This document shows, one piece after another, positions 12,182-35,944 of a DNA stretch of 64,000 bases. The stretch lies in the IMG/VR virus record IMGVR_UViG_3300016476_000987, one strand, 5' to 3'. A program made the position numbers and the translations under genes. Origin of the DNA: a virus (Duplodnaviria; Heunggongvirae; Uroviricota; Caudoviricetes). The notes beneath the pieces were generated by a model. That model did no database searches. It was given only the letters and a program-made list of their open reading frames with translations, and was not told the DNA's origin. Within the stretch, counting starts at the first letter, position 1. Every line of letters starts with the position of its first letter.

Positions 12182-14485
12182 ATGTTTGATAAGAAGTATG
12201 TTTTGGTAAATAGTGAGGAATCGCTAATAGAAATGGTTTCTCATATTAAATCTTTTAATATTATATCTTTTGATACGGAAACTACTTCTTTAAATCCAAG
12301 GAAAGGCAATATAGTGGGATTGTCCGTATCTGCTGAAGTAGGGATAGGCTATTATATGCCTACTTATTTGATGAAAGAAGGAGAGCTTGTTGAAGCAGAA
12401 ATTGCCGGTACTTCTTGTAAAGAGTTAGCCAGAAAGACCTTTAACTTATTGAAAAAGAAAAAGTTAGTAGGTCATAATCTATCTTTTGACTGTAGGTTTG
12501 TTTATCACGAATATGGTATAGACTTAGTTCCAAGCATTTACGCTGATACTTTATTGTTAGTACACACAGTATCTGAAGAAGGTATTGGCGTAGGCGGATC
12601 TTTTGCTCTTAAAGAAATTGCTAAAGGCATACAAGAGCATATAGGATTAGACATGGATAAAGAGGCTAACGAAGAACAGATAGAACTGAAGGCCTCTATA
12701 AAAGCTAATGGAGGGTCTACTACTAAAGAAAACTACGAAATCTACAAGGCAGATATAGATATTCTGTGTAAGTATGCTTGCGCAGATACTGACTTGACTC
12801 TTAGGGTATTTAATCACTTCTCCGACATACTAAAGGAAGAAAAACTAGAGTCTTTCTTTTATGAAGAAGAGGTTATGCCTTTGTATAAAGAAGTAACCAT
12901 TCCTATGGAAATGAACGGAGTTCTATTAGATATAGAACTCATGGAATCATCTAGAAAAGAAATAAAAGAAGACCTAGCTAAATACAAAAAGTTAGTTATT
13001 TCAGAACTTCTTAAAGATGATAGAGTTAGGGATTGGGTAGTAGCGAAAGCCATAACAGAGTTCCCAACCAGCAATAAAGGGAGGTTTGTCCAAGAATTGA
13101 TAAAAGTAACCGGCCAGGAATTCCCAGTATCTGCTAAAACCGGAAAATACTTAGTAAATGCTACTAATGTAAAATTGTGTGCTAATGAAGAGACTAAAGA
13201 GTTTCTTCTTACGGGAGATCCTAGTCTTATAGATGAAAATCTGTCCCTTAAAATAAGCATATCTTTATGGAAGGAAACTCAAGACGGAGATTTCTTTAAC
13301 ATACAATCCAAAGATCATTTAGGTCAAATAGCTTTTACTGCACTAGGAATGACTCCTATATCTACTACAGATAAAGGAAAGGCTCAATTCGATGATGATT
13401 TTATTCAATCCATCTCTGATAAACATGAGTGGGCTAAGAACTTACGCATATACAATAAACTGCTGAAGATAAAGTCTACATACATGGACCGGTTCCTTGA
13501 AAAGCAAGAGAATGGGATGTACTACTTTTACTATAAGCAGCATGCCACAGTATCCGGAAGATATGGATCAGACGCTCAACAGCTACCCAGACCTAAAGAA
13601 GAAGGAGAAGAGGACCCTATTGTACTGAAATACAATAATCTTATACGGGCTTTCTTTATATCAAAACCAGGGAACGTGTTTATTGATTGTGACTATGAGT
13701 CTTTGGAGCCTAAAGTATTCTCTCATGTATCTGGAGATGAAGGATTAAAGGACATTTTTAAGAATAATTGGGACTTTTACTCTACGATTGCTATAAAAAC
13801 TGAGAAGCTGCATCAGTACTCACCTGACAAAAAGGCACCCAACTACCTAAAGAAACTGGCAAATGATGTAAGACAGAAGGCTAAGGCATACTCTTTGGGG
13901 ATTGCTTATGGCATGGGAGCCTATGCTTTAGGTAAAAATATCAACGTTTCTACCAAAGAAGCAGAGAAGCTTGTCGAAGGTTATCTAAATGGGTTTCCTG
14001 AATTGAAAAGGTGGATGGAAGAATCCAGAGAGTTTGTAAAGAAAAACGGCTATATTAAAACTCAAGTAGGAAGAGTTCGACATTTATCAAAAGTTTCCTA
14101 TCTTTACAAGAAGTTTGGAGATAATCTTTTAGAATGGGATTATCAAAGAAAGCTAGAAGAAAAGCTAGGTAAAGACTTGGTTGTGAATATGGTAAGGGAT
14201 TATAAGAACGGTTTGAATAATGCAATGAACGTACAGATTCAAGGCTTAGCAGCATCTATTGTTAATAGGTCTGCTATAGCTATAAACCGTGCTTTTAAAG
14301 AAGCCGGAATAAAAGGACAAGTAATTGCACAGATTCATGACCAGTTAGTTATGGAAGTAGAAGAGGCAAGAGCGGAGGAGGCATCTAAAATAGTACAGGA
14401 TAAGATGGAAAACACAATCAATCTTACTGTAGAATTGAAAGCTCCTCCTGCTCTTGCTCATAATCTTAGAGATGGTCATGGCTAA
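12182..14485 (+). CDS. polA: DNA polymerase I (family A) with 3'-5' exonuclease domain
   Basis: Exo I ISFDTETTSL; motif A DCDYESLEPKVF; motif B RQKAKAYSLGIAYGMG; motif C QIHDQLVMEV. Confidence 0.95.
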   Translation: MFDKKYVLVNSEESLIEMVSHIKSFNIISFDTETTSLNPRKGNIVGLSVSAEVGIGYYMPTYLMKEGELVEAEIAGTSCKELARKTFNLLKKKKLVGHNLSFDCRFVYHEYGIDLVPSIYADTLLLVHTVSEEGIGVGGSFALKEIAKGIQEHIGLDMDKEANEEQIELKASIKANGGSTTKENYEIYKADIDILCKYACADTDLTLRVFNHFSDILKEEKLESFFYEEEVMPLYKEVTIPMEMNGVLLDIELMESSRKEIKEDLAKYKKLVISELLKDDRVRDWVVAKAITEFPTSNKGRFVQELIKVTGQEFPVSAKTGKYLVNATNVKLCANEETKEFLLTGDPSLIDENLSLKISISLWKETQDGDFFNIQSKDHLGQIAFTALGMTPISTTDKGKAQFDDDFIQSISDKHEWAKNLRIYNKLLKIKSTYMDRFLEKQENGMYYFYYKQHATVSGRYGSDAQQLPRPKEEGEEDPIVLKYNNLIRAFFISKPGNVFIDCDYESLEPKVFSHVSGDEGLKDIFKNNWDFYSTIAIKTEKLHQYSPDKKAPNYLKKLANDVRQKAKAYSLGIAYGMGAYALGKNINVSTKEAEKLVEGYLNGFPELKRWMEESREFVKKNGYIKTQVGRVRHLSKVSYLYKKFGDNLLEWDYQRKLEEKLGKDLVVNMVRDYKNGLNNAMNVQIQGLAASIVNRSAIAINRAFKEAGIKGQVIAQIHDQLVMEVEEARAEEASKIVQDKMENTINLTVELKAPPALAHNLRDGHG

Positions 14486-14514: not shown

Positions 14515-15279
14515 ATGAATAATAACTACGTTGTTTACCAACATAGAAGATTAGATAATAATCAAATTTTTTATGTTGGACAAGGATTGTTAAGCAGAGC
14601 TTATCAAAATCAAGTGAACAGAAGAAACACTAATTGGATAAAAGTAGTCAAAGAAGCAGGAGGATTTATAGTAGATATATTAAAAGAAGGACTTAGTAAA
14701 GAGGAGTCTTTGATTATAGAATCTGAGTATATAAAAAAATATGGAACTATAAAACATAACACTGGAATTCTTGTAAATGAAAGACTGTCCGGGAGTAGAG
14801 GAGTAAAAAGTGGCTACACCCACTCTGAAGAAAAAAGAAAAGAGATAAGCGAAAAAACAAAAAAAGCCATGCAAAATCCGGAAACAAAAAAAAGATTAAT
14901 AGAAAGTCATTTAAAATATTGGGAAAATTCGGAAAATCATATAAAAGCTTCTATTTCTACTAAAGGAGTTCATGCTGGCAGTAAACACCCAATGTACGGT
15001 AAAACTCATTCGGAAGAGTCTAAAGATAAAATGTCAAAAGCTAAATTAGGAAAAAAAAGATCTTTAGAAGCAATTGAAAAATTAAAAAAAAGAATTCCTT
15101 GGAATAAAGGACTTAAAGGAGCATATAAACAAAAACAAGAGACTATAGAAAAAAGAAAAAATACTTTAAAAAATAGACCCTATACTCCTCAAAAAAAAGT
15201 AGAATGTCCTTATTGTAAATTAATAGGCGGTTTTACTAATATGAAAAGATATCACTTTGATAATTGCAAAAACAAATAA
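14515..15279 (+). CDS. GIY-YIG homing endonuclease with NUMOD3-like repeats and C-terminal zinc finger (I-TevI-like, free-standing)
   Basis: YVVYQH...IFYVGQG GIY-YIG core; repeated GKTHSEESKDKMSKA-type NUMOD3 motifs; CPYC...HFDNC. Confidence 0.85.
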   Translation: MNNNYVVYQHRRLDNNQIFYVGQGLLSRAYQNQVNRRNTNWIKVVKEAGGFIVDILKEGLSKEESLIIESEYIKKYGTIKHNTGILVNERLSGSRGVKSGYTHSEEKRKEISEKTKKAMQNPETKKRLIESHLKYWENSENHIKASISTKGVHAGSKHPMYGKTHSEESKDKMSKAKLGKKRSLEAIEKLKKRIPWNKGLKGAYKQKQETIEKRKNTLKNRPYTPQKKVECPYCKLIGGFTNMKRYHFDNCKNK

Positions 15280-15775
15280 ACAAAAGATAATGGTTATTAA
15301 AAAAAACACACATGCTCCGCTTAGGTTTCCTAAATTGCTTATTGGGGAAGTCCTTATTAGCGCTGTTGTAGAATTTACAGACTCTTGTAGGTACGATGTA
15401 GGAGAAGATCAACTAGATGTCAATAAACTATTTGGTATCGGATACTTCCCTACTCATCATACTAATAGCGTAAGATTTGGATGGAGATACGATAAAAATG
15501 TAGATAAGATAGAAATCTTAGCCTACTATTATTTAAATGGTGATAGGCATTTTGATACTCTGACTTGGGCAGATATTGGAGTTTCTTATAGATGCGTTAT
15601 CTTTATTGAGCCCAATAATCATACTTTGTGTATGGGTAAAAAAGATATAGGAAGTTTGTTTGAAGTAGAACATTCCGTTCCTGTTAAAAGAAAATCTGTA
15701 GGGTACCTTCTTAGGCCTTACTTTGGCGGAAACAAAAAAGCACCTCACAACATAGAAATTAAAATTGAGATATGA
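15257..15775 (+). CDS. hypothetical protein (start possibly at later ATG 15290 to avoid overlap with GIY-YIG gene)
   Basis: ORF only. Confidence 0.4.
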   Translation: MIIAKTNKQKIMVIKKNTHAPLRFPKLLIGEVLISAVVEFTDSCRYDVGEDQLDVNKLFGIGYFPTHHTNSVRFGWRYDKNVDKIEILAYYYLNGDRHFDTLTWADIGVSYRCVIFIEPNNHTLCMGKKDIGSLFEVEHSVPVKRKSVGYLLRPYFGGNKKAPHNIEIKIEI

Positions 15776-16068
15776 GAAAAGTAGTAGCATTACACGACAA
15801 AGTTGTTCTTAAAAAAATTGAAGACGAAGACAAAGTAGTAGGAGGGATTATCATTCCCGATACCGGTAAAGAAAAATCAAACTATTTTGAGGTAGTTGAT
15901 ATAGGCCCAGGAATGTACCATCCTCACGTAATTAAAGAATATTATCCTATGGAGACATGTGTAGGAGACGTTGTTATTGTCCCTAAAGCAGTAGTAACGC
16001 AGATAATTGTAGACGGGGATGAATATTATGTTTGTAGAGAAGTAGAAATTCTAGCAATAATTAAGTGA
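15772..16068 (+). CDS. groES: co-chaperonin GroES (Cpn10)
   Basis: LHDKVVLKKIEDEDKVVGGIIIPDTGKEK...VVDIGPG matches GroES pattern (PLGDRVLVKR..EKTAGGIVLPD...VVAVGPG). Confidence 0.85.
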   Translation: MRKVVALHDKVVLKKIEDEDKVVGGIIIPDTGKEKSNYFEVVDIGPGMYHPHVIKEYYPMETCVGDVVIVPKAVVTQIIVDGDEYYVCREVEILAIIK

Positions 16069-16075
16069 TATAGAT

Positions 16076-16285
16076 ATGGACAAACATTTTGCTGTATTAG
16101 TAGATGTTCCTACAAAAGGAGAAATGATGTTGTTTCTTGGTTACTATGAAGATAATAAAGAGCAAATGGATGAAAGATATGAAGAGGTATCTATGGATCT
16201 TCCATTAACTCCTATCCTTGATAAATTGAAATCACACAAGTATAAATTGTTTAAACAAAAAGAAATAAATAATGATCAAGACTGA
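16076..16285 (+). CDS. hypothetical small acidic protein between groES and groEL
   Basis: ORF only. Confidence 0.4.
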   Translation: MDKHFAVLVDVPTKGEMMLFLGYYEDNKEQMDERYEEVSMDLPLTPILDKLKSHKYKLFKQKEINNDQD

Positions 16286-17945
16286 ATTTGGAAATGAGCT
16301 AAAAAGTAAACTGCTCAGCGGTATTTGTAAATTGAATGATAGCGTATCCTCTACTCTCGGTCCTGGAGGTAGAAACGTTATTATCCGGGATGAGGATGGC
16401 AACATTAAAGTAACGAAAGACGGAGTTACTGTAGCCAGGGCTTTCTCTAAGCTTGAGGATGATATTGAAGACATCGGTGCTCAGATGATCCGTAAAGTGT
16501 CTGAGAAGTCTGCTGATAAAGCAGGAGACGGTACTACAACCTCTACTCTCCTGGCTACTGTAATGGTAGAAGAAGGAATCAAAGTTATCACTCAGGGATG
16601 TAATGCCGTAGAAGTTAAAAAGGGTATTGACATTGGAGTAAAAAAAGTAGTAAGCCTTCTTAAAGAACTCTCAAGAGAAATCTCTTCTGATGATCAAATC
16701 AAACAAGTAGCTACTATCTCTGCCAATAACGATGTTGAAGTAGGAAATCTTATTGCAACAGCGATTGATAAAGTAGGTACTGACGGTGTTGTAGCTATTG
16801 AAGAATCTAAGACTGGTGAGACTTCTCTGGAAGTTGTTGAGGGTATGATGTTTGATCGTGGGTACAAATCCCCTTATTTTGTCACCAATCAGAATACTAT
16901 GCAAGCCGTTCTGGAAAAGCCACTTGTATTTCTGTATGATGGCAAAATAATGAACTCTAGCCAAGCAGTACCAGTTCTACAAGCAGCTGCTATGGAAAAT
17001 AGGCCCCTTCTTATTGTTGCGGAAGAAATCGAAGGAGAAGCCCTGGCTCTTCTTGTAGTAAATAAAGCTAATCAAACGATTAAGGTCTGTGCAGTAAAAG
17101 CTCCAGACTTTGGAGATCGTAGGACTGCTATTCTGGAGGACATCGCTATTCTAACCGGTGGAACTGTCCTGTCTCCTAACAAAGGTCACAAGCTTGATAA
17201 AATGAAGCCGACCGAGTTCAAAGCACATTTCGGAGAAGCAAGGGTAGTTAATGTTACTTCTAAAGACACTACAATCGTAGATGGAAAAGGATCAGCAGAG
17301 GCTATTGAGCAAAGACTGAACGAGATTAAGACTCAAATTGATATTGCTAAGTCTAATTTTGAGATTGAGAAACTTCAAGAAAGGTTGTCTAAACTTACTG
17401 GAGGAGTAGCTATCGTTAACGTAGGAGGTCTTAGTGAAGTGGAAATGAAGGAAAAGAAAGATCGTGTAGAAGATGCTCTTTACGCTACCAAAGCTGCGTT
17501 GGATCAAGGTATTGTCCCAGGAGGAGGAATGGCCCTTGTTATGTGCTCTTATAGGCTTCTTAAAGAAGCTATTACTGAGAACTCAGATCAACAAATTGGA
17601 GTTAGTATTGTATATAAATCATTAGTAGCTCCATTCAGAAAGATTATGCAAAATGCAGGGATTGAAGATTATCATTCTATGCTTAGTGAAATTCGTGATC
17701 TTAGAGTCGAGCATGAAAAGAAGCATCCCGAAGATCCTATGTTTCTCTGGTATGGATACAATGTGAAACTTGGAAATTTTGTTAACATGTATAAGGAAGG
17801 GATTATAGATCCGACTAAAGTAACTAGGACCGCCATAGAGAACGCAGCTAGCGTAGCCGGTACAATCCTTACTACAGAATCAGTAATCTTCTCAGTAGGA
17901 GAAAAAAAGAAAGAAGAAATTGATTACAGCCAATTCATGCAATAA
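16272..17945 (+). CDS. groEL: chaperonin GroEL (Cpn60)
   Basis: [41 protein letters not shown]; 557 aa. Confidence 0.95.
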
Positions 17946-17960
17946 TTTAAATTAATAAAA

Positions 17961-18200
17961 ATGGAGCATAATCCCCTAGCAGGAGTTAAATTTGAACAGA
18001 CATCCGGAGTAGTTTGTGAAAAATGTAAAGAAGCTGTTTTTTCCGAAGCTCTTATCCTTAGAAAGGTGTCTAGATTTTTGGTAGCCACTACTAGTAATAA
18101 AGACACTCTTATTCCGGTACCTGTTTTTTATTGCGTAAATTGCAAGCACGTCAATAAAGAATTTTTACCGGAAGGGTACACACAAGAGGATTCAGAATGA
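17961..18200 (+). CDS. zinc-ribbon protein (CEKC...CVNC)
   Basis: Two CxxC pairs. Confidence 0.5.
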   Translation: MEHNPLAGVKFEQTSGVVCEKCKEAVFSEALILRKVSRFLVATTSNKDTLIPVPVFYCVNCKHVNKEFLPEGYTQEDSE

Positions 18201-18376
18201 ACATAGATGAGATAAATGACAAAATAAAGATTTGTCAACAAAAAATTAACAGTTGCAGTGAAAGATTAGAAGCCGTAACTGATTCCAATACTTCTATGGA
18301 TGAGTACAATAATATCGTCCTGGAATTAGATAAAGCTATAGACGAACTTACTGAACTGATTAAAATCATAGAATGA
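18197..18376 (+). CDS. small coiled-coil protein (59 aa), ATGA overlaps with both neighbours
   Basis: ATG at 18197 overlaps upstream TGA; stop overlaps next ATG at 18373; below the 60-aa ORF-track cutoff. Confidence 0.35.
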   Translation: MNIDEINDKIKICQQKINSCSERLEAVTDSNTSMDEYNNIVLELDKAIDELTELIKIIE

Positions 18377-19308
18377 AAGAGTTCCTGGGTATTTCTGAAG
18401 AGATAAAGAATAAAATAAGAGAAGGGAAGAGGAGCGATCAAAAGAATATTTCTTTTAGTCAATTCTCGGTTTACGAATCTTGTCCGTACCGTTGGTACCT
18501 TACTTATGCTAAGGGAAACTATCTGTTTTCGGCTAGCATAAATACTGTATTTGGTACAGCTATTCATGAAGCTCTTCAGGAATACCTCAGGATCTTATTT
18601 GAAGTAAGTGCTAAAGAAGCAGATCGTTCTGATATTTTAGGCATATTTGAAACCTCTTTTAAAAGAGAGTACTTAAAAGAAGTAGAAAGTAATGGAGGAG
18701 TTCATTTTTCTAATAAAATAGAAATGATGGAGTTCTATGAAGATGGAGTACAAATATTAGAACAGTTTAGAAAAAAAAGGCAGCAGTTCTTTTCTAATAG
18801 AAAGCAAGAACTTTTAGGAATGGAAATTCCTTTATTAGTAGAAATAAAGGAAGACACTGATACTTTTTTATTCAATGGATTTATTGATTTAATTTATCGA
18901 GATAAAGAAGACGGTACGATTTACATAGAAGATATAAAAACATCCACAAAAGGCTGGTCTAAATATGAAAAGTCAGATGAGACCAAACTTTCACAGCTTC
19001 TTCTATATAAAAACTTCTTTTCTAAGCAATATGGATTTGACAAGAAAGATATTGTCCCCCAGTTCAGAATTCTAAAAAGAAAGCTTTGGGAAAATGCAGA
19101 ATTCCCTCAGAGCAGGATACAAACTCATGAGCCAGCGAATGGTACAGCAAAAGTAAATAATGCAGTACAAAGGCTTAATGTGTTCATCAATGAATGTTTT
19201 AATATTGATGGTACGCCTAAAGAAAAAGAGTATCCTAAAAAACCTTCCACTAATAATTGTAGATTTTGTCCTTTTAAAGATAGGCCGGATTTGTGCAATA
19301 AAAAGTAA
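18373..19308 (+). CDS. PD-(D/E)xK nuclease with Fe-S cluster cysteines (Cas4/RecB-like exonuclease)
   Basis: N-terminal ESCPYRW Cys; GFIDLIYRDKEDGTIYIEDIKTS (D..EDIK PD-ExK core); C-terminal CRFCPFKDRPDLC. Confidence 0.7.
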   Translation: MKEFLGISEEIKNKIREGKRSDQKNISFSQFSVYESCPYRWYLTYAKGNYLFSASINTVFGTAIHEALQEYLRILFEVSAKEADRSDILGIFETSFKREYLKEVESNGGVHFSNKIEMMEFYEDGVQILEQFRKKRQQFFSNRKQELLGMEIPLLVEIKEDTDTFLFNGFIDLIYRDKEDGTIYIEDIKTSTKGWSKYEKSDETKLSQLLLYKNFFSKQYGFDKKDIVPQFRILKRKLWENAEFPQSRIQTHEPANGTAKVNNAVQRLNVFINECFNIDGTPKEKEYPKKPSTNNCRFCPFKDRPDLCNKK

Positions 19309-19574: not shown

Positions 19575-21014
19575 ATGAAAGAAGGTTATATTAAAAAAGA
19601 AGATAGAAAAAAGATTTTATTAATCTCAGACGACATTAGATTTTTTTCCGGTATCGCCACAGTGTCCAGGGAAATTGTTATTGGAACAGCACATCATTAT
19701 AACTATGTATGTATCTGTGCTGCTCTGCAACATCCGGACAAAGGCAAAAGAATGGACCTTAGCGAATCCACAAACCAAATAACTGGTATTACAGATTCAG
19801 ATGTTACTATTTACCCTTATGATGGTTATGGGGATGCCGATTTTGTAAGAAATTTGATAAAATACGAGAAGCCTGATGCTCTGTTTTTTGTAACAGATCC
19901 CAGGTATTACACTTGGCTTTTTGAAATAGAGAATGAAATTAGGAAAAAAATCCCAATGATTTATTTGCAGATTTGGGATTGCGAACCGGCTCCTCTTTAT
20001 AATAGAGAGTTCTATCGTAGTTGCGATGCCTTATTAGCTATTTCTAAACAAACAGAAATACTTAATAAAGTAGTGTTAGGTAAATACCAAGAAGATTGTC
20101 TTATTAAATATGTTCCTCATGGTATTAACAGTAACATGTTTTTTAAGATAGACTCAGGACATGAAAAGTATGAAGAGCTACAAAACTTTAGAAAAGATTT
20201 ATTCGGTAAAAAAGATTTTCAATTTGTAGTCCTTTTTAACAGTAGAAACATTCGTAGAAAATCTCTCCCGGATACTATTGTAGCTTTTAAATTATTACTG
20301 GACTCTATGTCTCCTGAAGAAGCGGATAAGTGCTGCTTAGTGCTTCATACACATCAAGTAGATGAAAATGGAACTGATCTACCAGCAGTAATTGAAGTAT
20401 TTTTAGGGGACAGGAAAGACCAAGTAATCTTTTCTAACCCTGGATTAGACACCGGTAGAATGAACCTTCTGTATAATCTTGCAGATGTTACAGTACTAAT
20501 AAGTAGTAACGAAGGATGGGGCCTCTCTTTAACAGAGAGCCTAATGTCTGGCACCATGATTATTGCGAACGTAACAGGAGGCATGCAAGATCAAATGAGG
20601 TTTGAAGACGAGAATGGAGATTGGATAGAGTTCACAGAGTCTTTCTGTTCTAATCATTTTGGAAAGTATAAGAATTGTGGAGAATGGGCTATCCCTGTAT
20701 TTCCTTCTAATATTAGTATCCAAGGATCTGTGCCTACTCCTTACATCGCTGACGACAGAGCAGACTTTAGAGACGTTGCTAATGCTATGAAGCAAGTATA
20801 CGGTATGTCTAAAGAAGAAAGGATTAGCAGAGGAATGAAAGGACGAGAGTGGGTAACTTCAGACGAGGCTATGATGACTGCTGATAATATGTGTAAAAAC
20901 GTCATAGAAGCAGTAGATCAAACTATAGAGGAGTTCAGCCCTAGAAAAAAATATTATATCATAAACACAAATGATAGAGATAAGAAAACTCTTGCTTTCC
21001 CTCTTTCTTTATAA
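19575..21014 (+). CDS. glycosyltransferase, GT-B fold (GT4-like)
   Basis: EX7E motif SSNEGWGLSLTESLMSGTMIIA. Confidence 0.7.
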   Translation: MKEGYIKKEDRKKILLISDDIRFFSGIATVSREIVIGTAHHYNYVCICAALQHPDKGKRMDLSESTNQITGITDSDVTIYPYDGYGDADFVRNLIKYEKPDALFFVTDPRYYTWLFEIENEIRKKIPMIYLQIWDCEPAPLYNREFYRSCDALLAISKQTEILNKVVLGKYQEDCLIKYVPHGINSNMFFKIDSGHEKYEELQNFRKDLFGKKDFQFVVLFNSRNIRRKSLPDTIVAFKLLLDSMSPEEADKCCLVLHTHQVDENGTDLPAVIEVFLGDRKDQVIFSNPGLDTGRMNLLYNLADVTVLISSNEGWGLSLTESLMSGTMIIANVTGGMQDQMRFEDENGDWIEFTESFCSNHFGKYKNCGEWAIPVFPSNISIQGSVPTPYIADDRADFRDVANAMKQVYGMSKEERISRGMKGREWVTSDEAMMTADNMCKNVIEAVDQTIEEFSPRKKYYIINTNDRDKKTLAFPLSL

Positions 21015-21022
21015 TATTAGTT

Positions 21023-21991
21023 ATGATAAAAAGAGCATTAATTACCGGGATCAACGGTATGGATGGTAGTCATTTAGCGGATTTACTATTGACTAAAGGA
21101 TATGTTGTGTATGGTATGGAAAGACGAAAGTCTGTAAAACAAAATACTAACACAAAACATCTAGAAGGGAAAGTTAACTTTTTAGTTGGAGATCTAACAG
21201 ATCAAAATTCTTTAGTAAGAGCTTTAGTAGAATCTGATCCTCATGAAGTGTATAATTTAGCTGCACAGTCTTTTGTAGGAGAGAGTTGGAATACCCCAGA
21301 GCAAACTTCTGATGTAACTGGTTTAGGAGTTCTTAGGGTGTTAGAGGCAATCAGAATGTATGATAAATACAATAAGATTAGATTCTATCAAGCCTCTTCT
21401 TCTGAGATGTTTGGTAGAATGGTAGAGAATCCGGCTACCGAACAAACTCCTTTTTATCCTAGAAGTCCTTATGGAGTAGCCAAGCTATATGGACATTGGA
21501 TAACTAAGAATTATAGAGAGTCTTATAACATGTTCACTTGCAGCGGTATTCTTTTCAATCATGAATCTGAAAGAAGAGGATTAGAATTTGTAACCAGGAA
21601 AATAACTAACGGAGTAGCTAAAATACAAAAAGGATTGGCCGACAGTATTTCTTTGGGAAATCTAGATGCAAAAAGAGATTGGGGATATGCTCCTGATTAT
21701 GTAGAAGCTATGTGGGCCATGTTACAAAGAGATACTCCGGATGATTATGTTATATCTACAGGAAATACTTACAGTGTAAGAGACTTTCTAGACGTTGCTT
21801 TTCAAACAGTAGGAATTTCTAATTGGGAACCCTATGTTAAAATAGACCCTAAGTTTTTTAGACCGGCAGAAGTAGATGTCCTAAGAGGACATTCAGGTAA
21901 AGCTAGAGCCTCTTTAGGTTGGTACCCTAAAACTTCTTTTGAAGATATGGTAAAGATTATGGTTAATAATGATATTAAATTACTAAACTAA
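21023..21991 (+). CDS. gmd: GDP-mannose 4,6-dehydratase
   Basis: ALITGINGMDGSHLADLLLTKGYVVYGMERR Rossmann N-terminus typical of Gmd; SPYGVAKLYGHW (YxxxK); ILFNHESERRG. Confidence 0.9.
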   Translation: MIKRALITGINGMDGSHLADLLLTKGYVVYGMERRKSVKQNTNTKHLEGKVNFLVGDLTDQNSLVRALVESDPHEVYNLAAQSFVGESWNTPEQTSDVTGLGVLRVLEAIRMYDKYNKIRFYQASSSEMFGRMVENPATEQTPFYPRSPYGVAKLYGHWITKNYRESYNMFTCSGILFNHESERRGLEFVTRKITNGVAKIQKGLADSISLGNLDAKRDWGYAPDYVEAMWAMLQRDTPDDYVISTGNTYSVRDFLDVAFQTVGISNWEPYVKIDPKFFRPAEVDVLRGHSGKARASLGWYPKTSFEDMVKIMVNNDIKLLN

Positions 21992-21992
21992 T

Positions 21993-23303
21993 ATGAATAA
22001 GTTATCGTGTGTAGTAGCCAGTCCAATTGATACATTTAGCGGATATGGTGTTATGGCTAGAAATTTTGCAAAAGCTCTTCTTAAAATAAGGAAAGACGAA
22101 TGGGATATTAAATTCTTGTCTTTGAGATGGGGAATGACTCCTTTTGGAGCATTAGATGAATCTGATCCTTCAGATGCAGAGATTATGAGTCTAATTATCC
22201 CAGACGGACAACTAAAATATAAACCAGATATTTGGTTTCAGATTAGCGTGTCTGAAGAGTTTACTCCTGTAGGAACGGTAAATATTGGGTACTCTTGTTT
22301 AGTAGAGACTACCATTCTTCCTGGGGAAATGCTTGAAGGGCTCAATAGAATGAATTTTAATCTTGTTTCTTGTGAGCATGCAAAAACTATTGCTACATCT
22401 ACTTCATGGGATAAAGTAGACCAAAATCAGAAAAAAATAGGAGAGTTAGTACTAGAAAAGCCAGTAGAAACTTTATTTATTGGGCTTGATACAGATAAGT
22501 TTAAGAAGCCTAAATCGGTATCTTTTGATCTTTCTAACATTAAAGAATCTTTTTGTTTTTTATCAGTAGGGCATATGCTTCCCGGAGCTGTAGAGTTAGA
22601 AGATCGAAAAATGATGGGAAGATTAATTAAAACTTTCTTAGAGACTTTTAAAGATAAAAAAAACAAACCTGCTCTTATACTTAAAACAGCAACCTCAGGT
22701 TATTCTTATGTAGACCAAGAAAGGACGTTATCTATTATAGACAAAATTAAAAGTACTGTATCAGGAAAAGACCTCCCAAATATTTACCTAATTCATGGAG
22801 AATTAAGTGAACAGGAACTTTGTGAGCTATATTCTCATGATAAAGTAAAAGCTTTTGTACTAACCGGCAACGAAGGTTTTGGTCTACCTTACATAGAATT
22901 TTCAGCAGTATCAGGAAAACCTTTGATTGTGTCTCCCTGGAGCGGTCATTTAGATTTTTTAGATAAAGAATTTAACACTTTTGTATTTGGGGCTATAGAG
23001 CAAATTCACCCAGCAGCAGCAAATAAGTATTTACTAAGAGAGGCTGCGTGGTATAAACCTGATGTAAAAGATCTTTCGGACAAACTTGTAGACATGCATA
23101 AGAATTATTCTAAGTATGTAGACAACGGAAAAAGACAAGGATTTAAATCTAGAACAGAATTTACTATTGATAAGATGGCTGAGAAATTAGACGATATTCT
23201 TAAAACTAATATTCCTCCTATTAGCAAACCCGTTCCCTTATCTTTACCTAAACTAGTTGATATAAAAAAGCCTAACTTTGACTATCTAGAAGAATCTAAA
23301 TAA
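21993..23303 (+). CDS. glycosyltransferase, GT-B fold (GT4-like)
   Basis: EX7E motif TGNEGFGLPYIEFSAVSGKPLIV. Confidence 0.6.
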   Translation: MNKLSCVVASPIDTFSGYGVMARNFAKALLKIRKDEWDIKFLSLRWGMTPFGALDESDPSDAEIMSLIIPDGQLKYKPDIWFQISVSEEFTPVGTVNIGYSCLVETTILPGEMLEGLNRMNFNLVSCEHAKTIATSTSWDKVDQNQKKIGELVLEKPVETLFIGLDTDKFKKPKSVSFDLSNIKESFCFLSVGHMLPGAVELEDRKMMGRLIKTFLETFKDKKNKPALILKTATSGYSYVDQERTLSIIDKIKSTVSGKDLPNIYLIHGELSEQELCELYSHDKVKAFVLTGNEGFGLPYIEFSAVSGKPLIVSPWSGHLDFLDKEFNTFVFGAIEQIHPAAANKYLLREAAWYKPDVKDLSDKLVDMHKNYSKYVDNGKRQGFKSRTEFTIDKMAEKLDDILKTNIPPISKPVPLSLPKLVDIKKPNFDYLEESK

Positions 23304-31342: not shown

Positions 31343-31422
31343 GCCCTCTTGCTGAAATCGGTAGACAGGCCAGACTTAGGATCTGGTGCTTAGGCGTGTC
31401 AGTTCGAGTCTGACAGAGGGCA
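31343..31422 (+). tRNA. tRNA-Leu (anticodon TAG), type II with 11-nt variable region
   Basis: Hand fold: acceptor GCCCTCT/AGAGGGC, D stem CTG/CAG with GG loop, anticodon stem CCAGA/TCTGG loop CTTAGGA, T arm GTCAG-TTCGAGT-CTGAC, discriminator A. Confidence 0.8.
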
Positions 31423-31610
31423 CTTTCCCTATAAATAAATATTCGTAGTATGATAACTAAATTAGTAACAGTATCTTCAGTTGTTATTGGAATTTTTTTT
31501 ATAATTGGAAGTACTTTTAATCACATTAATCCTTGGTTGGCCGTAGGATTATTCGTAGGTGTGTTGTATTTTGCAGCTCATAAAATAGACAAGATAATAA
31601 AAAAAGAAAA

Positions 31611-32420
31611 ATGAAAAAAACAATCAGTCTTATCGCAGTCGTAGTTTTGTTCGTAGTATCCTCTTGCGAACGAGTAGCTCCTAATTATTACGGGGTATTG
31701 ATGGAAAACTTTGGTAAGTCCGGTAAATCTGACTACTCTCGTCAGCAGGGCCGAGTAAACACAATGTCTCCAGGTACGGAACTGTTCCAGGTACCGGCTT
31801 GGGAACAAAGGGCAAATTTCACTGATGATAATGGGAATGAAAGAGTATTAAAATTAAAAGCTTCTGATAACACAGAATTTTCTGCAAAGCCCATCTATTC
31901 CTATAAAGCTATCGAAAACAAAGTAGTAGACTTGGTATTCCAAAACTCACGCCTTGGCTCAGGAGACGGCTTTATGAGAGCCTTAGAAGACAACGTACTT
32001 GAGCCTCGAATGTACGACATTATTAAAGAAGAGAGCCGTAGATACACTACAGATACGCTTATGGCACAAGGTGGGGGCCTTTTGTTTGAGCAACGAGTTC
32101 AAGAGGTAATTCGTAAAGCCTTTGAAGATGCTGGTCTCCAGCTGGTCTCCTTCAGTTCTAACCTTGACTTTAGTGAGAAGGTGAAGCAAAAGATTGATAC
32201 TCGTAATGAGGTGAATACTAATATCTCTGTACTTGATCAGCAGATTGCAGAGCAGCGTAAGCGTAATGAACTTGCTGAGCTCCAAACCCAAGAAAACATT
32301 ATCAAGAGTCGAGGTATTACTGAAGAGCTGCTTCAGCAACAAGCTATTCAGAAGTGGAATGGCGTTCTTCCTTCTACCTGGTCTGGATCTAATCTGCCTT
32401 TTGTAAAAGCGATTAAGTAA
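31611..32420 (+). CDS. lipoprotein with coiled-coil region (possibly SPFH/band-7-like)
   Basis: Signal peptide plus lipobox MKKTISLIAVVVLFVVSSC; long Glu/Gln-rich coiled coil; lies between tRNA genes. Confidence 0.5.
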   Translation: MKKTISLIAVVVLFVVSSCERVAPNYYGVLMENFGKSGKSDYSRQQGRVNTMSPGTELFQVPAWEQRANFTDDNGNERVLKLKASDNTEFSAKPIYSYKAIENKVVDLVFQNSRLGSGDGFMRALEDNVLEPRMYDIIKEESRRYTTDTLMAQGGGLLFEQRVQEVIRKAFEDAGLQLVSFSSNLDFSEKVKQKIDTRNEVNTNISVLDQQIAEQRKRNELAELQTQENIIKSRGITEELLQQQAIQKWNGVLPSTWSGSNLPFVKAIK

Positions 32421-32563
32421 AGTAAAAAGTACCTCGAACGCTTCCCGTAAGATCAGCGCACCAGCATGAGGTCTTGTTTCCACGTAAGTGAATAGCCCAA
32501 GGCATAAGCTATGGTGGAGTACCAAACCTCTCTTTGACTGGCCATCAAATGATGTTTGGATAT

Positions 32564-32651
32564 AGTCAGGCGACCTTGTGGTAAAGGTTTTAGGAGGGCG
32601 CATCTCTGTTATGCATAAATCCTCCCTTGGGTTCGAGTCCCTTCCTGACTA
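32564..32651 (+). tRNA. atypical tRNA-like element (unit A, 88 nt): canonical acceptor/T arm, anticodon stem GGAGG/CCTCC enclosing a 23-nt loop
   Basis: Acceptor AGTCAGG/CCTGACT, D arm ACCT-TGTGGTAA-AGGT, T loop TTCGAGT; inner hairpin GCAT-CTCTGTT-ATGC. Confidence 0.4.
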
Positions 32652-32772
32652 CTGATTCAGTTTGCCCGTGGTAACGACTTGTTATAAGAAATTATAATTG
32701 GTTTCTGTGATCAAAATCCAAGCAATGTCTCACTGTTGTTTGGGCTAAATGTGAGGAAAAAACGGGATGTTT

Positions 32773-32875
32773 AGTCAGGTGGCGGAGTGGGCTAACGCTA
32801 ACTAGGAAGAGTCTGAGGGGTGGTAGCCTAGTACCAATACCCTGATGACCACAGGTTCGAATCCTGTCCTGACTA
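32773..32875 (+). tRNA. atypical tRNA-like element (unit B, 103 nt): tRNA-Leu-like D arm GCGG-AGTGGGCTA-ACGC, stem CTAGG/CCTAG with 20-nt loop
   Basis: Same acceptor AGTCAGG/CCTGACT; T arm ACAGG-TTCGAAT-CCTGT. Confidence 0.4.
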
Positions 32876-33005
32876 CAATTGGTTGCAGGTTTTGGAAACA
32901 CTGCGTAATGTCAAGTATAAATCCAGCGGCTACACTTGGTCCAGTAGCAGAGGGTCTTGCCCCAATTATTTTTAATTCAGTCCTGGCTACTTAACAAGTA
33001 ATTAA

Positions 33006-33431
33006 ATGGAGATAACAAAATATAATATTTGTGAAACTATTGAGAACTATCTTAAAGAATTAAAAGTAAGGTATTCTATTCTTGATCCAGATTCTAAAGG
33101 TTGCGTCTATGAGCTTTTCAGTACATCAATGTCAGGACATATTCAAGTTGAATATAATCTTGATGATGAGAATGATAGTTATTTTGTTTTGCAGTTTTAT
33201 ACAGCAGTAGATAACCTCGGTTATTCAATATACCATCAGGAATGGGATAATGAATGTGAAAATTGTGATTCTGTAGAAGGTGAAATAGATAATTTATTAG
33301 AGTCTGTTAAAAAAATAAATCAAGGAATTTCAAAAATATCTACAAAGATTGAACAAATAAAAGATCTATGTGGTGAATATGGGTTAGACTTTGATAGTCT
33401 TATAACATTAAATTATGATTTTGATTCTTAA
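33006..33431 (+). CDS. hypothetical acidic protein inside tRNA island
   Basis: ORF only. Confidence 0.45.
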   Translation: MEITKYNICETIENYLKELKVRYSILDPDSKGCVYELFSTSMSGHIQVEYNLDDENDSYFVLQFYTAVDNLGYSIYHQEWDNECENCDSVEGEIDNLLESVKKINQGISKISTKIEQIKDLCGEYGLDFDSLITLNYDFDS

Positions 33432-33454
33432 TAAATCTACTAAAACAAACAGTT

Positions 33455-33727
33455 ATGAAATCAAATAAAGAATACAGATTTGCCGACAATCCAAAAGAAA
33501 AAGAGTTTCACGATAAATTCAAACAAATGTTTGAAATATCAAACACTACAAGAAATTCATTATCGGCAATTATCTTTGGTTGGAAAGATGCTTCACAAAA
33601 CTATCCAAATGTATATTTAACTGATAAAGAAGAAGATATTTGCCTAAATCTTATACAATGGCTTGGCAGTCCTGTCGGTCAATCATTTCTTAAAGAATGT
33701 GGTTTTGATAACAATGAAAACAAATAG
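33455..33727 (+). CDS. hypothetical protein
   Basis: ORF only. Confidence 0.4.
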   Translation: MKSNKEYRFADNPKEKEFHDKFKQMFEISNTTRNSLSAIIFGWKDASQNYPNVYLTDKEEDICLNLIQWLGSPVGQSFLKECGFDNNENK

Positions 33728-33729
33728 TT

Positions 33730-33936
33730 ATGGCAAACAAAGTATGGCACAAAGTAGTAATTGCAACAGAGGAACAGGATGTTACAGTTCGTCCTACTGA
33801 TGAAAACGATGGTATTATTTTAGAAACGAAAGAGCCAGATGGCACTGGAAGTCCCAGACTATATCTTAATAGAGATGAAATGGAGTTTCTTATCACTAAG
33901 ATGAGAGAGATGATGGATTATGTAACTTCTAAATAA
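33730..33936 (+). CDS. hypothetical protein
   Basis: ORF only. Confidence 0.4.
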   Translation: MANKVWHKVVIATEEQDVTVRPTDENDGIILETKEPDGTGSPRLYLNRDEMEFLITKMREMMDYVTSK

Positions 33937-33943
33937 AAAAACA

Positions 33944-34261
33944 ATGTTGTATCCAAGAGCTTATCATAAAGACGGCAGACATAGAAGACCAATTCCTCAA
34001 TGGGCTAAAATTGTAATAGGAATTATTCTAGTTTCTATATGGGTTTTTATTGGTATTGAGTCTATAGTAAGTCGTACTAAAAAAGTAAAAGTATATGGAA
34101 CGGTAGTAAGTCACCATATAACTAATGACAGGTCTGGAAATCCTACTTACTACACTATTATCAAAACAGATGATGGACAAATAATGACTAAGAAGGGTTT
34201 AAATTACTTTATAATTAAAGAGGATGATAGGGTAGTGATAGACGATTATGTATTTGAGTAA
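33944..34261 (+). CDS. hypothetical membrane protein (one TM helix)
   Basis: IVIGIILVSIWVFIGI hydrophobic segment. Confidence 0.45.
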   Translation: MLYPRAYHKDGRHRRPIPQWAKIVIGIILVSIWVFIGIESIVSRTKKVKVYGTVVSHHITNDRSGNPTYYTIIKTDDGQIMTKKGLNYFIIKEDDRVVIDDYVFE

Positions 34262-34327
34262 AAAAATTTTGTTCGTATTCTTAAGTGCCCTATCTTTGCC
34301 CTGGATCTTTGAAATAAGGGATTAGTT

Positions 34328-34413
34328 GCCCCGGTGATGGAACTGGTAGACATGAAGGACTTAAAATCCTTTTCGCCGAAAAGCGAGTACGGGTTCGACT
34401 CCCGTCTGGGGCA
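34328..34413 (+). tRNA. tRNA-Leu (anticodon TAA), type II
   Basis: Acceptor GCCCCGG/CTGGGGC, anticodon stem AAGGA/TCCTT loop CTTAAAA, variable hairpin TCGCCGAAAAGCGAG, T arm ACGGG-TTCGACT-CCCGT. Confidence 0.85.
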
Positions 34414-34419
34414 CAAAAT

Positions 34420-34529
34420 AGTCAGGTGGCGAAATTGGTTAGACGCTAAAAGCGGGTTCGTAACCCTTGACCGTCTGGTATCAGATGCTTAGAGTAACAC
34501 TCGTACAAGTTCGAATCTTGTCCTGACTG
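34420..34529 (+). tRNA. atypical tRNA-like element (unit C, 110 nt): Leu-like D arm GCGA-AATTGGTTAG-ACGC, expanded central region with small hairpins
   Basis: Acceptor AGTCAGG/CCTGACT, T arm ACAAG-TTCGAAT-CTTGT, discriminator G. Confidence 0.4.
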
Positions 34530-34558
34530 CAATTATTAAACAATAAAACAAATAAACA

Positions 34559-34810
34559 ATGAGACCAGACGAAATGAGAAACGAAATTGTAAGAGAAAAG
34601 GTAGAGTATAAACCCGATCCTAGTGACCTAAGAAAAAGACATCCAATTATTATTGAATTTCTTGATAGCGGGTGTATTGTTAGAGTAGGATGTAAATCAA
34701 TAGCATTTAATGATTATAGAAATGGAATGGAAGAAATAAATGCTTATGTAAAAGATCCTATTACTGCATATCAAAAGTGGGGTAAAGAATTAGGAATAGA
34801 ATTGTACTGA
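34559..34810 (+). CDS. hypothetical protein
   Basis: ORF only. Confidence 0.45.
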   Translation: MRPDEMRNEIVREKVEYKPDPSDLRKRHPIIIEFLDSGCIVRVGCKSIAFNDYRNGMEEINAYVKDPITAYQKWGKELGIELY

Positions 34811-34819
34811 TACAAGGTT

Positions 34820-34906
34820 AGTCAGGTGGCTGTAGGTATCAGCTTTAGGAGGTTGCATCTCTGTTATGTGTAATGCCTTCCACGGGTTCGAATCCTGTTC
34901 TGACTA
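34820..34906 (+). tRNA. atypical tRNA-like element (unit D, 87 nt), homologous to unit A (stem GGAGG/CCTTC, 23-nt loop containing GCATCTCTGTTATG)
   Basis: Acceptor AGTCAGG/TCTGACT (one GU), D arm GCTG-TAGGTAT-CAGC, T arm ACGGG-TTCGAAT-CCTGT. Confidence 0.4.
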
Positions 34907-35030
34907 CAAAAAAATAAAAGTAATGCAAAAAGAAGAAATCAAACTATGGATTGATAGATGGTCTAAATTAAAACCATCTCCGAAAAAAGATATGTTAATT
35001 AAGATTTGGTCTAGGTTTTTATAACAAATA

Positions 35031-35152
35031 GTCAGGTGGCGGAATGGTAGACGCAGAGGGGTCAACATCCTCGAAATAGGGAGTATAAAAAAGTTGAAAT
35101 ATAGGTACCGCACACTCCAGACATCGTACAAGTTCGAATCTTGTCCTGACTA
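35031..35152 (+). tRNA. atypical tRNA-Leu(CAA)-like element (unit E, 122 nt): normal anticodon arm GAGGG-GTCAACA-TCCTC but ~54-nt variable region
   Basis: Acceptor AGTCAGG/CCTGACT, D arm GCGG-AATGGTAG-ACGC identical to bacterial tRNA-Leu, T arm ACAAG-TTCGAAT-CTTGT. Confidence 0.45.
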
Positions 35153-35272
35153 CGAGGGGAAAGTAACCTAAAGAGAGCCTCAAATGGTGAATGTCTGTAG
35201 CTTATCTAAGCATAGCAGATTGTGACCGCCGGTAATGATCTCAGCAGGTGACACACGGGAGAGACCGTACAT

Positions 35273-35376
35273 AGTCAGGTGGCGATAATGGATATACGCA
35301 CCCTTAGTTCAGGGAGTATGGAAATATGAGGTAATGAATACCATACAATGTGCAAGTTCGAATCTTGCCCTGACCG
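35273..35376 (+). tRNA. atypical tRNA-like element (unit F, 104 nt); T stem GCAAG/CTTGC covaries relative to other units
   Basis: Acceptor AGTCAGG/CCTGACC, D arm GCGA-TAATGGATAT-ACGC, T loop TTCGAAT. Confidence 0.35.
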
Positions 35377-35507
35377 CGCAGAAATCCAACACAACGACGT
35401 GGTAGCCATTTTCGGATGGAGAGTAACCGTGAAGTAATAGTAGCGGAGCATACCCAAAAAAATGTTATCGGGACGTGCAATGGTTGACAGCCGGAAAGAC
35501 GGCAAAT

Positions 35508-35592
35508 GGTCAAATAGTGTATGGCGCACAGAGGAAGTAGTCGCAGCAATGTAGACCCGAATCGAGGGTGGGTTCGATTCCCAGTTTGACCG
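35508..35592 (+). tRNA. possible type II tRNA-like gene (85 nt) with no clean anticodon arm
   Basis: Acceptor GGTCAAA/TTTGACC perfectly paired, T arm TGGG-TTCGATT-CCCA, D stem GTG/CAC with GG loop; no 5-bp anticodon stem found. Confidence 0.3.
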
Positions 35593-35699
35593 CATATTCC
35601 CCTGCATAGTGCGGAATGGTGTGGAGTAATCAGGTAGGCGCACCCCAAAACCAGTAAGGTTATGAGAGGCAAAACAATTGTCTGACACTGGTAAAATCG

Positions 35700-35740
35700 T
35701 GACAGCGTGGAAAGACACCCTGACAGCGTGGAAAAGACAC
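35700..35740 (+). repeat. tandem direct repeat TGACAGCGTGGAAAGACAC x2 immediately upstream of tRNA-Met
   Basis: Two copies, 19/20 nt identical, read directly. Confidence 0.6.
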
Positions 35741-35746
35741 GCAATT

Positions 35747-35820
35747 GGACCCTTAGCTCAGTTGGTTAGAGCAAATGACTCATAATCATTAGGTCCACGG
35801 TTCAAGCCCGTGAGGGTCCA
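35747..35820 (+). tRNA. tRNA-Met (anticodon CAT; elongator-type or Ile-lysidine type cannot be distinguished)
   Basis: GGACCCT...AGGGTCC acceptor, D arm GCTC-AGTTGGTTA-GAGC, anticodon stem AATGA/TCATT loop CTCATAA, T arm CACGG-TTCAAGC-CCGTG. Confidence 0.9.
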
Positions 35821-35827
35821 CAATACT

Positions 35828-35901
35828 GGTCTGGTAGCTCAGTTGGATAGAGCGGCAGCCTTCTAAGCTGTAGGTCATTGGTTCGAATCCAATCCGGATC
35901 A
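35828..35901 (+). tRNA. tRNA-Arg (anticodon TCT)
   Basis: Acceptor GGTCTGG/CCGGATC, anticodon loop CTTCTAA, T arm ATTGG-TTCGAAT-CCAAT. Confidence 0.9.
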
Positions 35902-35944
35902 CTAATAACTCTTTATGGAAGACAACAAAGGTGAGTATTATTAT

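Follow-up and report, generated by a model that had tools for sequence, protein, structure and literature searches.

The window analyzed here is a 64,000-nucleotide (nt) stretch of viral DNA (Caudoviricetes; IMG/VR record IMGVR_UViG_3300016476_000987). A co-chaperonin gene (groES), a chaperonin gene (groEL), and an open reading frame (ORF) of 69 amino acids (aa) between them, termed ORF69 or X, form a compact operon in the window. An earlier note, made from the sequence alone, had described both chaperonin genes as complete and the intervening ORF as acidic. These features were confirmed at the exact coordinates listed in Table 1, all on the plus strand; ORF69 has an isoelectric point (pI) of 4.9, with 15 D+E versus 10 K+R. 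It starts 7 nt past the groES stop codon, and its end overlaps the groEL start by 14 nt. The locus very probably represents a functional group I chaperonin operon, groES-X-groEL, of a viral lineage, and X is most likely a dispensable accessory modulator or client adaptor. The X family is the main new lead. It is conserved at 33% to 100% identity while the neighboring polymerase switched families.

Conservation of the GroES and GroEL proteins

Both proteins were compared with family profiles, as the earlier note had proposed, and with solved structures. GroES matched the Cpn10 profile PF00166 over residues 3-97 of 98, with an E-value of 1.8e-18 and 66.8 bits (cut-off 21.1), and aligned over its full length with Thermus thermophilus GroES (1WNR, E 4.8e-16). 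The mobile loop is canonical: GGIIIPDTGKEK. Marine et al. (2017, ISME J; PMC5649160) describe this loop by a Gly plus three small hydrophobic residues, and here VVGGIIIPDTGKEK pairs with KGGIVLPDTAKEK of T. thermophilus. Similarly, GroEL matched the Cpn60_TCP1 profile PF00118 over residues 21-540 (E 3.2e-65, 221 bits, cut-off 34.3). Cpn60 membership was judged by a profile match above the curated threshold that spans the equatorial, intermediate, and apical domains, and the GroEL match does so. GroEL also matched phrog_5725, chaperonin groEL, over its full length (E 8.4e-149). Its best match in the PDB is Chlorobaculum GroEL (5DA8, E 6.9e-160), and the other top solved relative is a reconstructed ancestral chaperonin of the Fibrobacteres-Chlorobi-Bacteroidetes (FCB) group. 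Comparison with Escherichia coli GroEL (1AON) by phmmer aligned residues 5-542 with 6-523 (E 5.4e-138).

Functional residues were then read from an alignment to E. coli GroEL, in which the reference aligned as the PDB search would lead one to expect. All 22 positions checked at the ATP/Mg/K site are conserved except A480V. The retained residues include T30-P33 (TLGP), K51, D52, GDGTTT 86-91 with D87-T91, S151, D398, G414-G416 (GGG), I454, N479, I493, and D495 (E. coli numbering). Eight of the nine apical residues that bind substrate and GroES are identical (Y199, S201, Y203, F204, L237, L259, V263, and V264), and the ninth, L234V, is a conservative change. The hinge pair R197/E386 is conserved. 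The ratio of non-synonymous to synonymous substitution rates (dN/dS) against the closest relative, locus L002, is 0.045 for GroEL and 0.10 for GroES. The earlier note had named loss of the ATP-binding or equatorial-domain signatures as the observation that would speak against its claim. These signatures are intact save A480V and, together with the low dN/dS, indicate that no such loss has occurred. The phage-encoded GroES-GroEL pair thus appears, from its conserved residues, to be complete and functional.

The window GroEL shares with the E. coli protein a full-length three-domain alignment, the ATP site, the apical face, and the hinge salt bridge, and the pair shares the GroES mobile loop. 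The two GroELs are 49% identical and differ at several places. Two clade-specific insertions are found, of 4 aa after E. coli residues ~305-314 and of 12 aa after ~469-474. R13K, V/A29S, P47I, Y360F, and C/A519S are signatures of the clade. Two of the changes from E. coli face the cavity (F44D and Y360F), and two lie at ring-ring contacts (E434S and V464M). The C-terminal tail of GGM repeats, which is typical of Cpn60 without being strictly defining, is absent in the window GroEL. Of 80 cellular GroELs sampled, 76 have tails rich in G and M; no member of the window's clade does. Instead, the viral GroELs of the large clade (L001-L081; positions 17900-17945 in the window) end in a conserved ID[YP]SQFM motif, with DPNMLLG in another subgroup. 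The altered tail and the cavity residues F44D and Y360F suggest that the cavity is adapted to viral clients. The text of Marine et al. contains neither "C-terminal" nor "GGM", and the viral tail is apparently undiscussed there (PMC5649160). The replacement of GGM by ID[YP]SQFM is a second, smaller lead for those who study chaperonin mechanism.

Distribution and origin of the chaperonin pair

The earlier note had regarded full GroEL genes as rare among phages and mostly known from a few large ones. This view is outdated. Matches to the window GroEL were found in 254 GenBank phage records, some of them evidently bacterial contaminants, including phages of Vibrio, Flavobacterium, Cellulophaga, Maribacter, and Bacteroides as well as crAss-like and EL-like phages. 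At least 547 IMG/VR contigs encode GroEL relatives. Names of the type L001-L081 stand for viral loci with such GroELs. Only four among the best 80 of the 547 matches are more than 60% identical to the window GroEL. The order PolA, GroES, GroEL, zinc ribbon, PD-(D/E)XK nuclease, and glycosyltransferase recurs in dozens of the best 80 loci and in the Flavobacterium phage vB_FspM_immuto. The window has the same module order with three extra insertions, namely a homing endonuclease, ORF161, and X. A megablast search of the 4.9-kb block against GenBank phages returned no match, which indicates that there is no close cultured relative.

Two papers have already described this operon class. Marine et al. 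defined viral GroEL clades by the presence and order of GroES, and reported viral GroES>GroEL operons that are linked to polA and distinct in evolution from cellular chaperonins (PMC5649160). In immuto-like phages, with genomes of 155-190 kb, the "regular" DNA polymerase (DNAP) is swappable and belongs to family A, B, or C, and every such DNAP neighborhood encodes chaperonins of the GroEL/GroES family (Virol J 2024; PMC11348598). Neither paper describes the ORF69 family, and the window's GroEL sub-clade is not singled out in the parts of the two texts that were consulted (PMC5649160, PMC11348598). The GroES-GroEL pair is therefore real but ordinary, a divergent addition to a published class of phage operons at a known genomic position. 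As one more member of a documented class, it brings no conceptual change.

The origin of the pair was analyzed by identity and by neighbor-joining phylogeny with viral and cellular sequences, a check the earlier note had called for. In a tblastn scan of one genome each for 185,579 species, the best cellular GroELs were 47-53% identical and mostly from the FCB group. Over trimmed columns, the window GroEL is 76-95% identical to those of L002-L005, 53-57% to other viral GroELs, and 48-55% to cellular ones. The window and L002-L005 form a subclade in 100/100 bootstraps, and the main viral clade, which includes immuto, is supported by 99/100. The low cellular identity, the bootstraps of the viral clade, and the conserved synteny together indicate that, as far as these sequences tell, the window GroEL is of an old viral chaperonin lineage, inherited vertically, rather than a recent host capture or contamination. 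The subclade of the window, whose neighbor is PolA, nests among GroELs that lie beside PolB (L165, L166, and L172). This nesting fits the in-situ DNAP swapping reported for immuto-like phages (PMC11348598).

The nearest cultured phage is immuto (Immutovirus; MW353175-7, NC_055915). Its annotated order runs from PolA to co-chaperonin GroES and chaperonin GroEL, with a Zn-finger ORF next and a PD-(D/E)XK nuclease farther on, as in the window. Its GroEL belongs to the same large viral clade and has a non-GGM tail, IDPSQFM. The genome size class is similar: a contig of 183,965 bp lies in the cluster with an identical ORF69, compared with 160 kb for immuto, and it fits the 155-190 kb range of the group (PMC11348598). 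The source of the window is an uncultured phage of ~180 kb related to immuto (Immutovirus-like), probably with a host in the Bacteroidota. The amino acid identities to immuto are, however, just 54% for GroEL, 39% for GroES, and 53% for PolA. In immuto the two chaperonin genes are 2 nt apart without X, the PolA-groES junction has no insertion, and in GroES the hydrophobic tripeptide is preceded by Gly-Ser, not by Gly-Gly. The virioplankton operons (PMC5649160) resemble the window in that a phage GroEL is encoded with its own GroES, in canonical order and linked to polA. Pseudomonas phage EL gp146 and other jumbo-phage chaperonins (OBP, AR9) are also phage-encoded members of the Cpn60 family. 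They are only ~25% identical over the match, and EL-type chaperonins work without a co-chaperonin, whereas the window has a canonical GroES and the GroES-binding apical residues.

Two other explanations of the pair were weighed. The lost GGM tail, the two lineage-specific insertions, and the inter-ring contact substitutions E434S and V464M might be read as signs of chaperonin genes in decay, or of genes turned to a moonlighting, non-folding role. This is very improbable, as the residues checked for catalysis, nucleotide binding, the apical face, and the hinge are all retained, purifying selection on GroEL is strong, and the co-evolving GroES keeps an intact mobile loop. The tail motif ID[YP]SQFM is itself conserved in the viral clade, and such a conserved non-GGM tail points to function, not decay. 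Recent capture of groESL from a host, or a contaminated or chimeric contig, would agree with the canonical bacterial order groES>groEL and with the best PDB and cellular relatives in the FCB group, which are compatible with an ultimate origin there. Against this stand a top cellular identity of 53% by tblastn (55% over trimmed columns) among the best matches of the species scan, the position of the window GroEL in the viral clade, and phage replication flanks that are syntenic in dozens of viral contigs and one cultured phage. The GC content is uniform over the block, at ~0.32-0.38, and the cellular-type tail is lost. Identity, phylogeny, and synteny rule capture and contamination out, and this explanation is effectively refuted.

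The ORF69 family and its possible role

Between ORF69 and its L002 counterpart, 15 differences at 35 synonymous sites and 15 at 172 non-synonymous sites give a dN/dS of 0.147. A diverged homologue with 33% identity occupies the same slot between groES and groEL in L003. These two findings indicate that ORF69 is a real gene. AlphaFold2 (AF2), run on an alignment of 18 sequences, confidently predicted a compact β-β-α-β-α-β domain with a predicted local distance difference test (pLDDT) score of 81.7 and a predicted template modeling (pTM) score of 0.62. A first AF2 run on six near-identical sequences reached a pLDDT of 60 and was not used. ORF69 is a real small protein and, according to the model, a folded one.

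A word-indexed search with ORF69 returned close relatives only. An exhaustive HMMER profile search of 1.84 billion (1.84e9) representative proteins was more productive, and recovered a family of 13 clusters at 50% identity, with lengths of 65-93 aa and E-values from 7e-43 to 6e-4. Its conserved motifs include KH[LF]AF..D.P.G..MFP.YYE and YK[VI]FK.K. Cpn10 lies upstream of the family members in 12 of the 12 readable contexts, at a spacing of -47 to +9 nt, and Cpn60 lies downstream in every readable context. No member was found outside a chaperonin operon among these representatives. X usually abuts or overlaps groEL; one contig has three ORFs between them (68 aa, NikA-like, and DUF723). Some X operons adjoin a family B polymerase (L165, L166, and L172) and not PolA, which indicates that the groES-X-groEL trio was conserved across the polymerase swap. 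The family appears to be undescribed, and its whole known distribution lies inside phage groES-X-groEL operons.

Searches for distant relatives gave no functional assignment. With tblastn against GenBank phages, nothing was found at E≤10. Pfam and PHROGs searched with ORF69, and Pfam searched with 18 family members, gave sub-threshold noise only (PRMT5 and PH_18 at E~0.02), and the fold comparison of the model gave no match. The best hit of the ORF69 profile among PDB sequences, 25 residues of Pol gamma B at E 0.0097, was judged spurious. Homology to the spacer ORF of Cellulophaga phage Calle_1 was rejected (no BLASTP alignment; hhalign probability 0.1%), as was homology to T4 Gp39.2/NwgI (hhalign probability 0.2%).

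The junction between groES and groEL was compared across 75 viral loci. In 70 of them the two genes are spaced by -8 to +33 nt with no intervening gene. Cargo is present in the other five, which are the window, L002, and L003 with X, L005 with other ORFs, and L031 with a GIY-YIG endonuclease. In L004 the two genes are 3 nt apart without X. In L005 the gap holds a 109-aa lipoprotein-like ORF and a 57-aa ORF in place of X; the 109-aa ORF (L005 5497-5826) has a lipoprotein-like signal peptide (MKKYVIAAALIAVITGC…). In 48/50 neighbor-joining bootstraps, one clade unites the GroELs of the X-bearing operons, all of them, with those of L002-L005. This is consistent with X having arrived once, at the base of the clade, and having later been lost in L004 and replaced in L005.

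Two known phage systems bear on the position and the possible function of X. Phages like phi38:1 have groES and groEL "separated by a short ORF" (PMC5649160). Cellulophaga phage phi38:1/Calle_1 (Pervagoviridae) has the order Cpn10, one short hypothetical ORF, and GroEL, and a replication module that ends in a PD-(D/E)XK nuclease, as in the window. Its spacer ORF of 90 aa has no similarity to ORF69, and only the position is shared; its GroEL is only ~37-40% identical, and this podovirus of 73 kb differs from the window in its polymerase context. T4 provides the precedent that small phage proteins tune the GroEL/GroES machine. T4 Gp39.2 (NwgI), the only small GroEL modulator documented from a phage, shifts GroEL to an open, GroES-accepting state, and gp31 substitutes for GroES. 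Unlike X, Gp39.2 targets the host GroEL and is encoded outside a chaperonin operon, and T4 has no groEL.

Several readings of X were compared. The best-supported one makes X an accessory factor that the phage can do without but whose function is linked to the chaperonin, as a modulator or as a client adaptor; a functional tie and an unrelated passenger carry roughly comparable weight. A plausible, though not favored, alternative is that ORF69 is a "moron" or selfish insertion at a permissive, highly expressed junction, either with a role unconnected with folding, such as anti-defense or host takeover, or kept in place by vertical inheritance alone. The junction indeed carries other cargo in L005, L031, and Calle_1 and is empty in L004, no functional homology of X was found, and one insertion event is enough to explain the linkage when all X operons fall in one GroEL clade. 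This alternative fits less well with the fact that X has stayed by groES while diverging to ~33% identity under purifying selection, although the neighborhood was remodeled meanwhile by PolA/PolB exchange, variable upstream ORFs, and, in one contig, the three-ORF insertion between X and groEL. The confinement of the family to chaperonin operons also argues against it. A stronger version of the functional tie, in which the ~65-93 aa family is a dedicated third component that physically binds the phage chaperonin, is tentative and on balance doubtful. Under it, X, co-translated with GroES and GroEL, would attach to one of the two and might adjust the reaction cycle, bring in particular phage clients, or prevent mixing with the host GroES/GroEL. 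If true, X would be the first accessory subunit of a group I chaperonin encoded in the chaperonin operon. X is strictly linked to the operon, appears translationally coupled to both partners, and has a conserved fold; these features might even suggest an obligate specificity subunit, without which the pair could not act on clients. This is improbable, since natural operons without X exist in close relatives: the GroEL of L004 is 74-76% identical to that of the window, L005 has swapped X for unrelated ORFs, and 70 of the 75 related viral operons have no intervening gene. GroES and GroEL also keep their canonical elements of mutual recognition. The suggestion of the earlier note that the 69-aa ORF could be a specificity factor is favored by the strict linkage to phage groES-groEL operons, while the operons without X speak against an obligate role.

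Some points weigh against reading the locus as a functional chaperonin operon with X as its accessory factor. Neither the sequence nor the fold of X hints at its function, and its acidity is not kept across the family, where the pI ranges from 4.5 to 9.2. X is absent in the close relatives L004 and L005 and in most of the viral operons compared. A single insertion followed by vertical inheritance would explain the strict linkage of X without functional coupling. The GroEL phylogenies are neighbor-joining trees only and include partial sequences for some X loci. The window GroEL lacks the GGM tail, so the chemistry of its cavity may depart from what is known of E. coli. The assembly state, the ATPase activity, and the clients of the chaperonin are inferred from conservation.

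With X as a dispensable accessory factor, the operon would work as follows. Its three genes would be co-transcribed with the replication and nucleotide-metabolism genes; they are tightly packed among genes of the same orientation, and promoter or terminator motifs are not in excess there. Counts of sigma-70 promoter motifs (26 versus 26.7 expected) and intrinsic terminators (6 versus 4.6) are at chance level, and are weakly informative for a phage probably of Bacteroidota. GroEL would form heptameric rings, and non-native phage proteins would bind its conserved hydrophobic apical face. The phage GroES lid would close the ring via the canonical mobile loop and encapsulate the clients, in a cycle driven by ATP hydrolysis. 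Phage proteins, presumably large structural ones, could then be folded without reliance on the chaperonin capacity of the host. The operon was inherited vertically in the old viral GroEL clade, at a conserved position beside the "regular" DNAP, a gene that is itself exchanged between PolA, as in the window, and PolB, as in relatives. X would have been gained once at the base of one operon sub-clade and then kept right after groES. The role of X would be functionally analogous to that of T4 Gp39.2/NwgI, without homology between the two proteins. If X binds the chaperonin, it would be a natural handle on how viral chaperonins specialize for viral clients. The groES-X-groEL operon would then also be a compact, testable system of three adjacent genes, with L004 and L005 as natural controls without X.

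Neighboring genes and other features of the window

The chaperonin genes lie in a replication module, as the earlier note had placed them, with PolA and a homing endonuclease on one side and a Cas4-like nuclease on the other; Pfam and PHROG matches bear out these flanks (Table 1). Co-oriented genes upstream of the operon encode a gp32-like single-stranded DNA-binding protein, a RecA-like ATPase, a 5'-3' exonuclease, a DnaB helicase, a ribonucleotide reductase, a dUTPase, and PolA. Three further ORFs, which the earlier note had not mentioned, were found in the block: ORF161, the zinc-ribbon ORF, and the 59-aa ORF.

Table 1 Coordinates of the chaperonin operon and its neighboring genes in the window.
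Feature	Coordinates	Strand	Description
PolA	12182..14485	+	Family A DNA polymerase with 3'-5' exonuclease domain; Pfam DNA_pol_A (E 9.2e-67), DNA_pol_A_exo1
Homing endonuclease	14515..15279	+	NUMOD3; Pfam NUMOD3 (E 6.1e-08); phrog_314, phrog_655
ORF161	15290..15775	+	161 aa (listed as 172 aa from TTG at 15257); no Pfam or PHROG match
groES	15772..16068	+	Cpn10 co-chaperonin, 98 aa; Pfam PF00166, phrog_3188
ORF69 (X)	16076..16285	+	69 aa, uncharacterized family; no Pfam or PHROG match
groEL	16272..17945	+	Group I chaperonin Cpn60, 557 aa; PF00118, phrog_5725
Zinc-ribbon ORF	17961..18200	+	CxxC…CxxC, 79 aa; downstream of groEL
59-aa ORF	18197..18376	+	Downstream of the zinc-ribbon ORF
PD-(D/E)XK (Cas4-like) nuclease	18373..19308	+	End of block; Pfam PDDEXK_1 (E 3.3e-23); phrog_69 exonuclease

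PolA is the conserved left neighbor of the chaperonin operon in immuto-like phages, with synteny in most of the loci L001-L073. The homing endonuclease between PolA and groES has a GIY-YIG-like motif at its N-terminus, spotted by eye. It is a variable element: the same junction is occupied in L004 (54% aa identity), and it is absent in L002, L003, and L005. The junctions that flank groES are insertion hot-spots for homing endonucleases (window 14515-15279, L004 5051-5704, and L031 5291-5926). In L031 the GIY-YIG endonuclease lies between groES and groEL, unlike in the window. The stop codon of ORF161 overlaps the groES start codon (ATGA). ORF161 is 97% identical at the aa level to its counterpart in L002, with a dN/dS of 0.028, and is called as 161 aa in L178; among the loci fetched, a counterpart was found in L002 only.

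The zinc-ribbon ORF is a conserved companion of groEL in this phage group: downstream of GroEL, tblastn matches to it at 41-96% were found in most loci, and the immuto counterpart is annotated "Zn-finger protein". The PD-(D/E)XK nuclease is syntenic in many loci, and is followed by a glycosyltransferase and a GDP-mannose dehydratase. The region 19575-23303, with a GT1 glycosyltransferase and a GDP-mannose 4,6-dehydratase, resembles a cassette for sugar modification placed after the replication block, and the glycosyltransferase after the nuclease is syntenic in many relatives.

Loci without an upstream PolA, which have PolB where readable, carry a conserved protein of ~240 aa directly or shortly upstream of groES. 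It has no Pfam match, shows 25-55% pairwise identity, and is absent from the window. It was found in L165 (2187-2930), L166 (2450-3163), L172 (2408-3160), L170 (112-828), and L173 (443-1162), and also in L007, L049, L052, L060, L065, and L068. This protein may be another gene of the chaperonin neighborhood.

Elsewhere in the window, four tRNA genes are found on the plus strand at 31343-35902 (Leu-TAG, Leu-TAA, Met-CAT, and Arg-TCT). The GC skew and the AT skew flip sign at ~50 kb, where the ORFs turn from the plus to the minus strand. This flip probably marks a boundary between modules or transcription directions.

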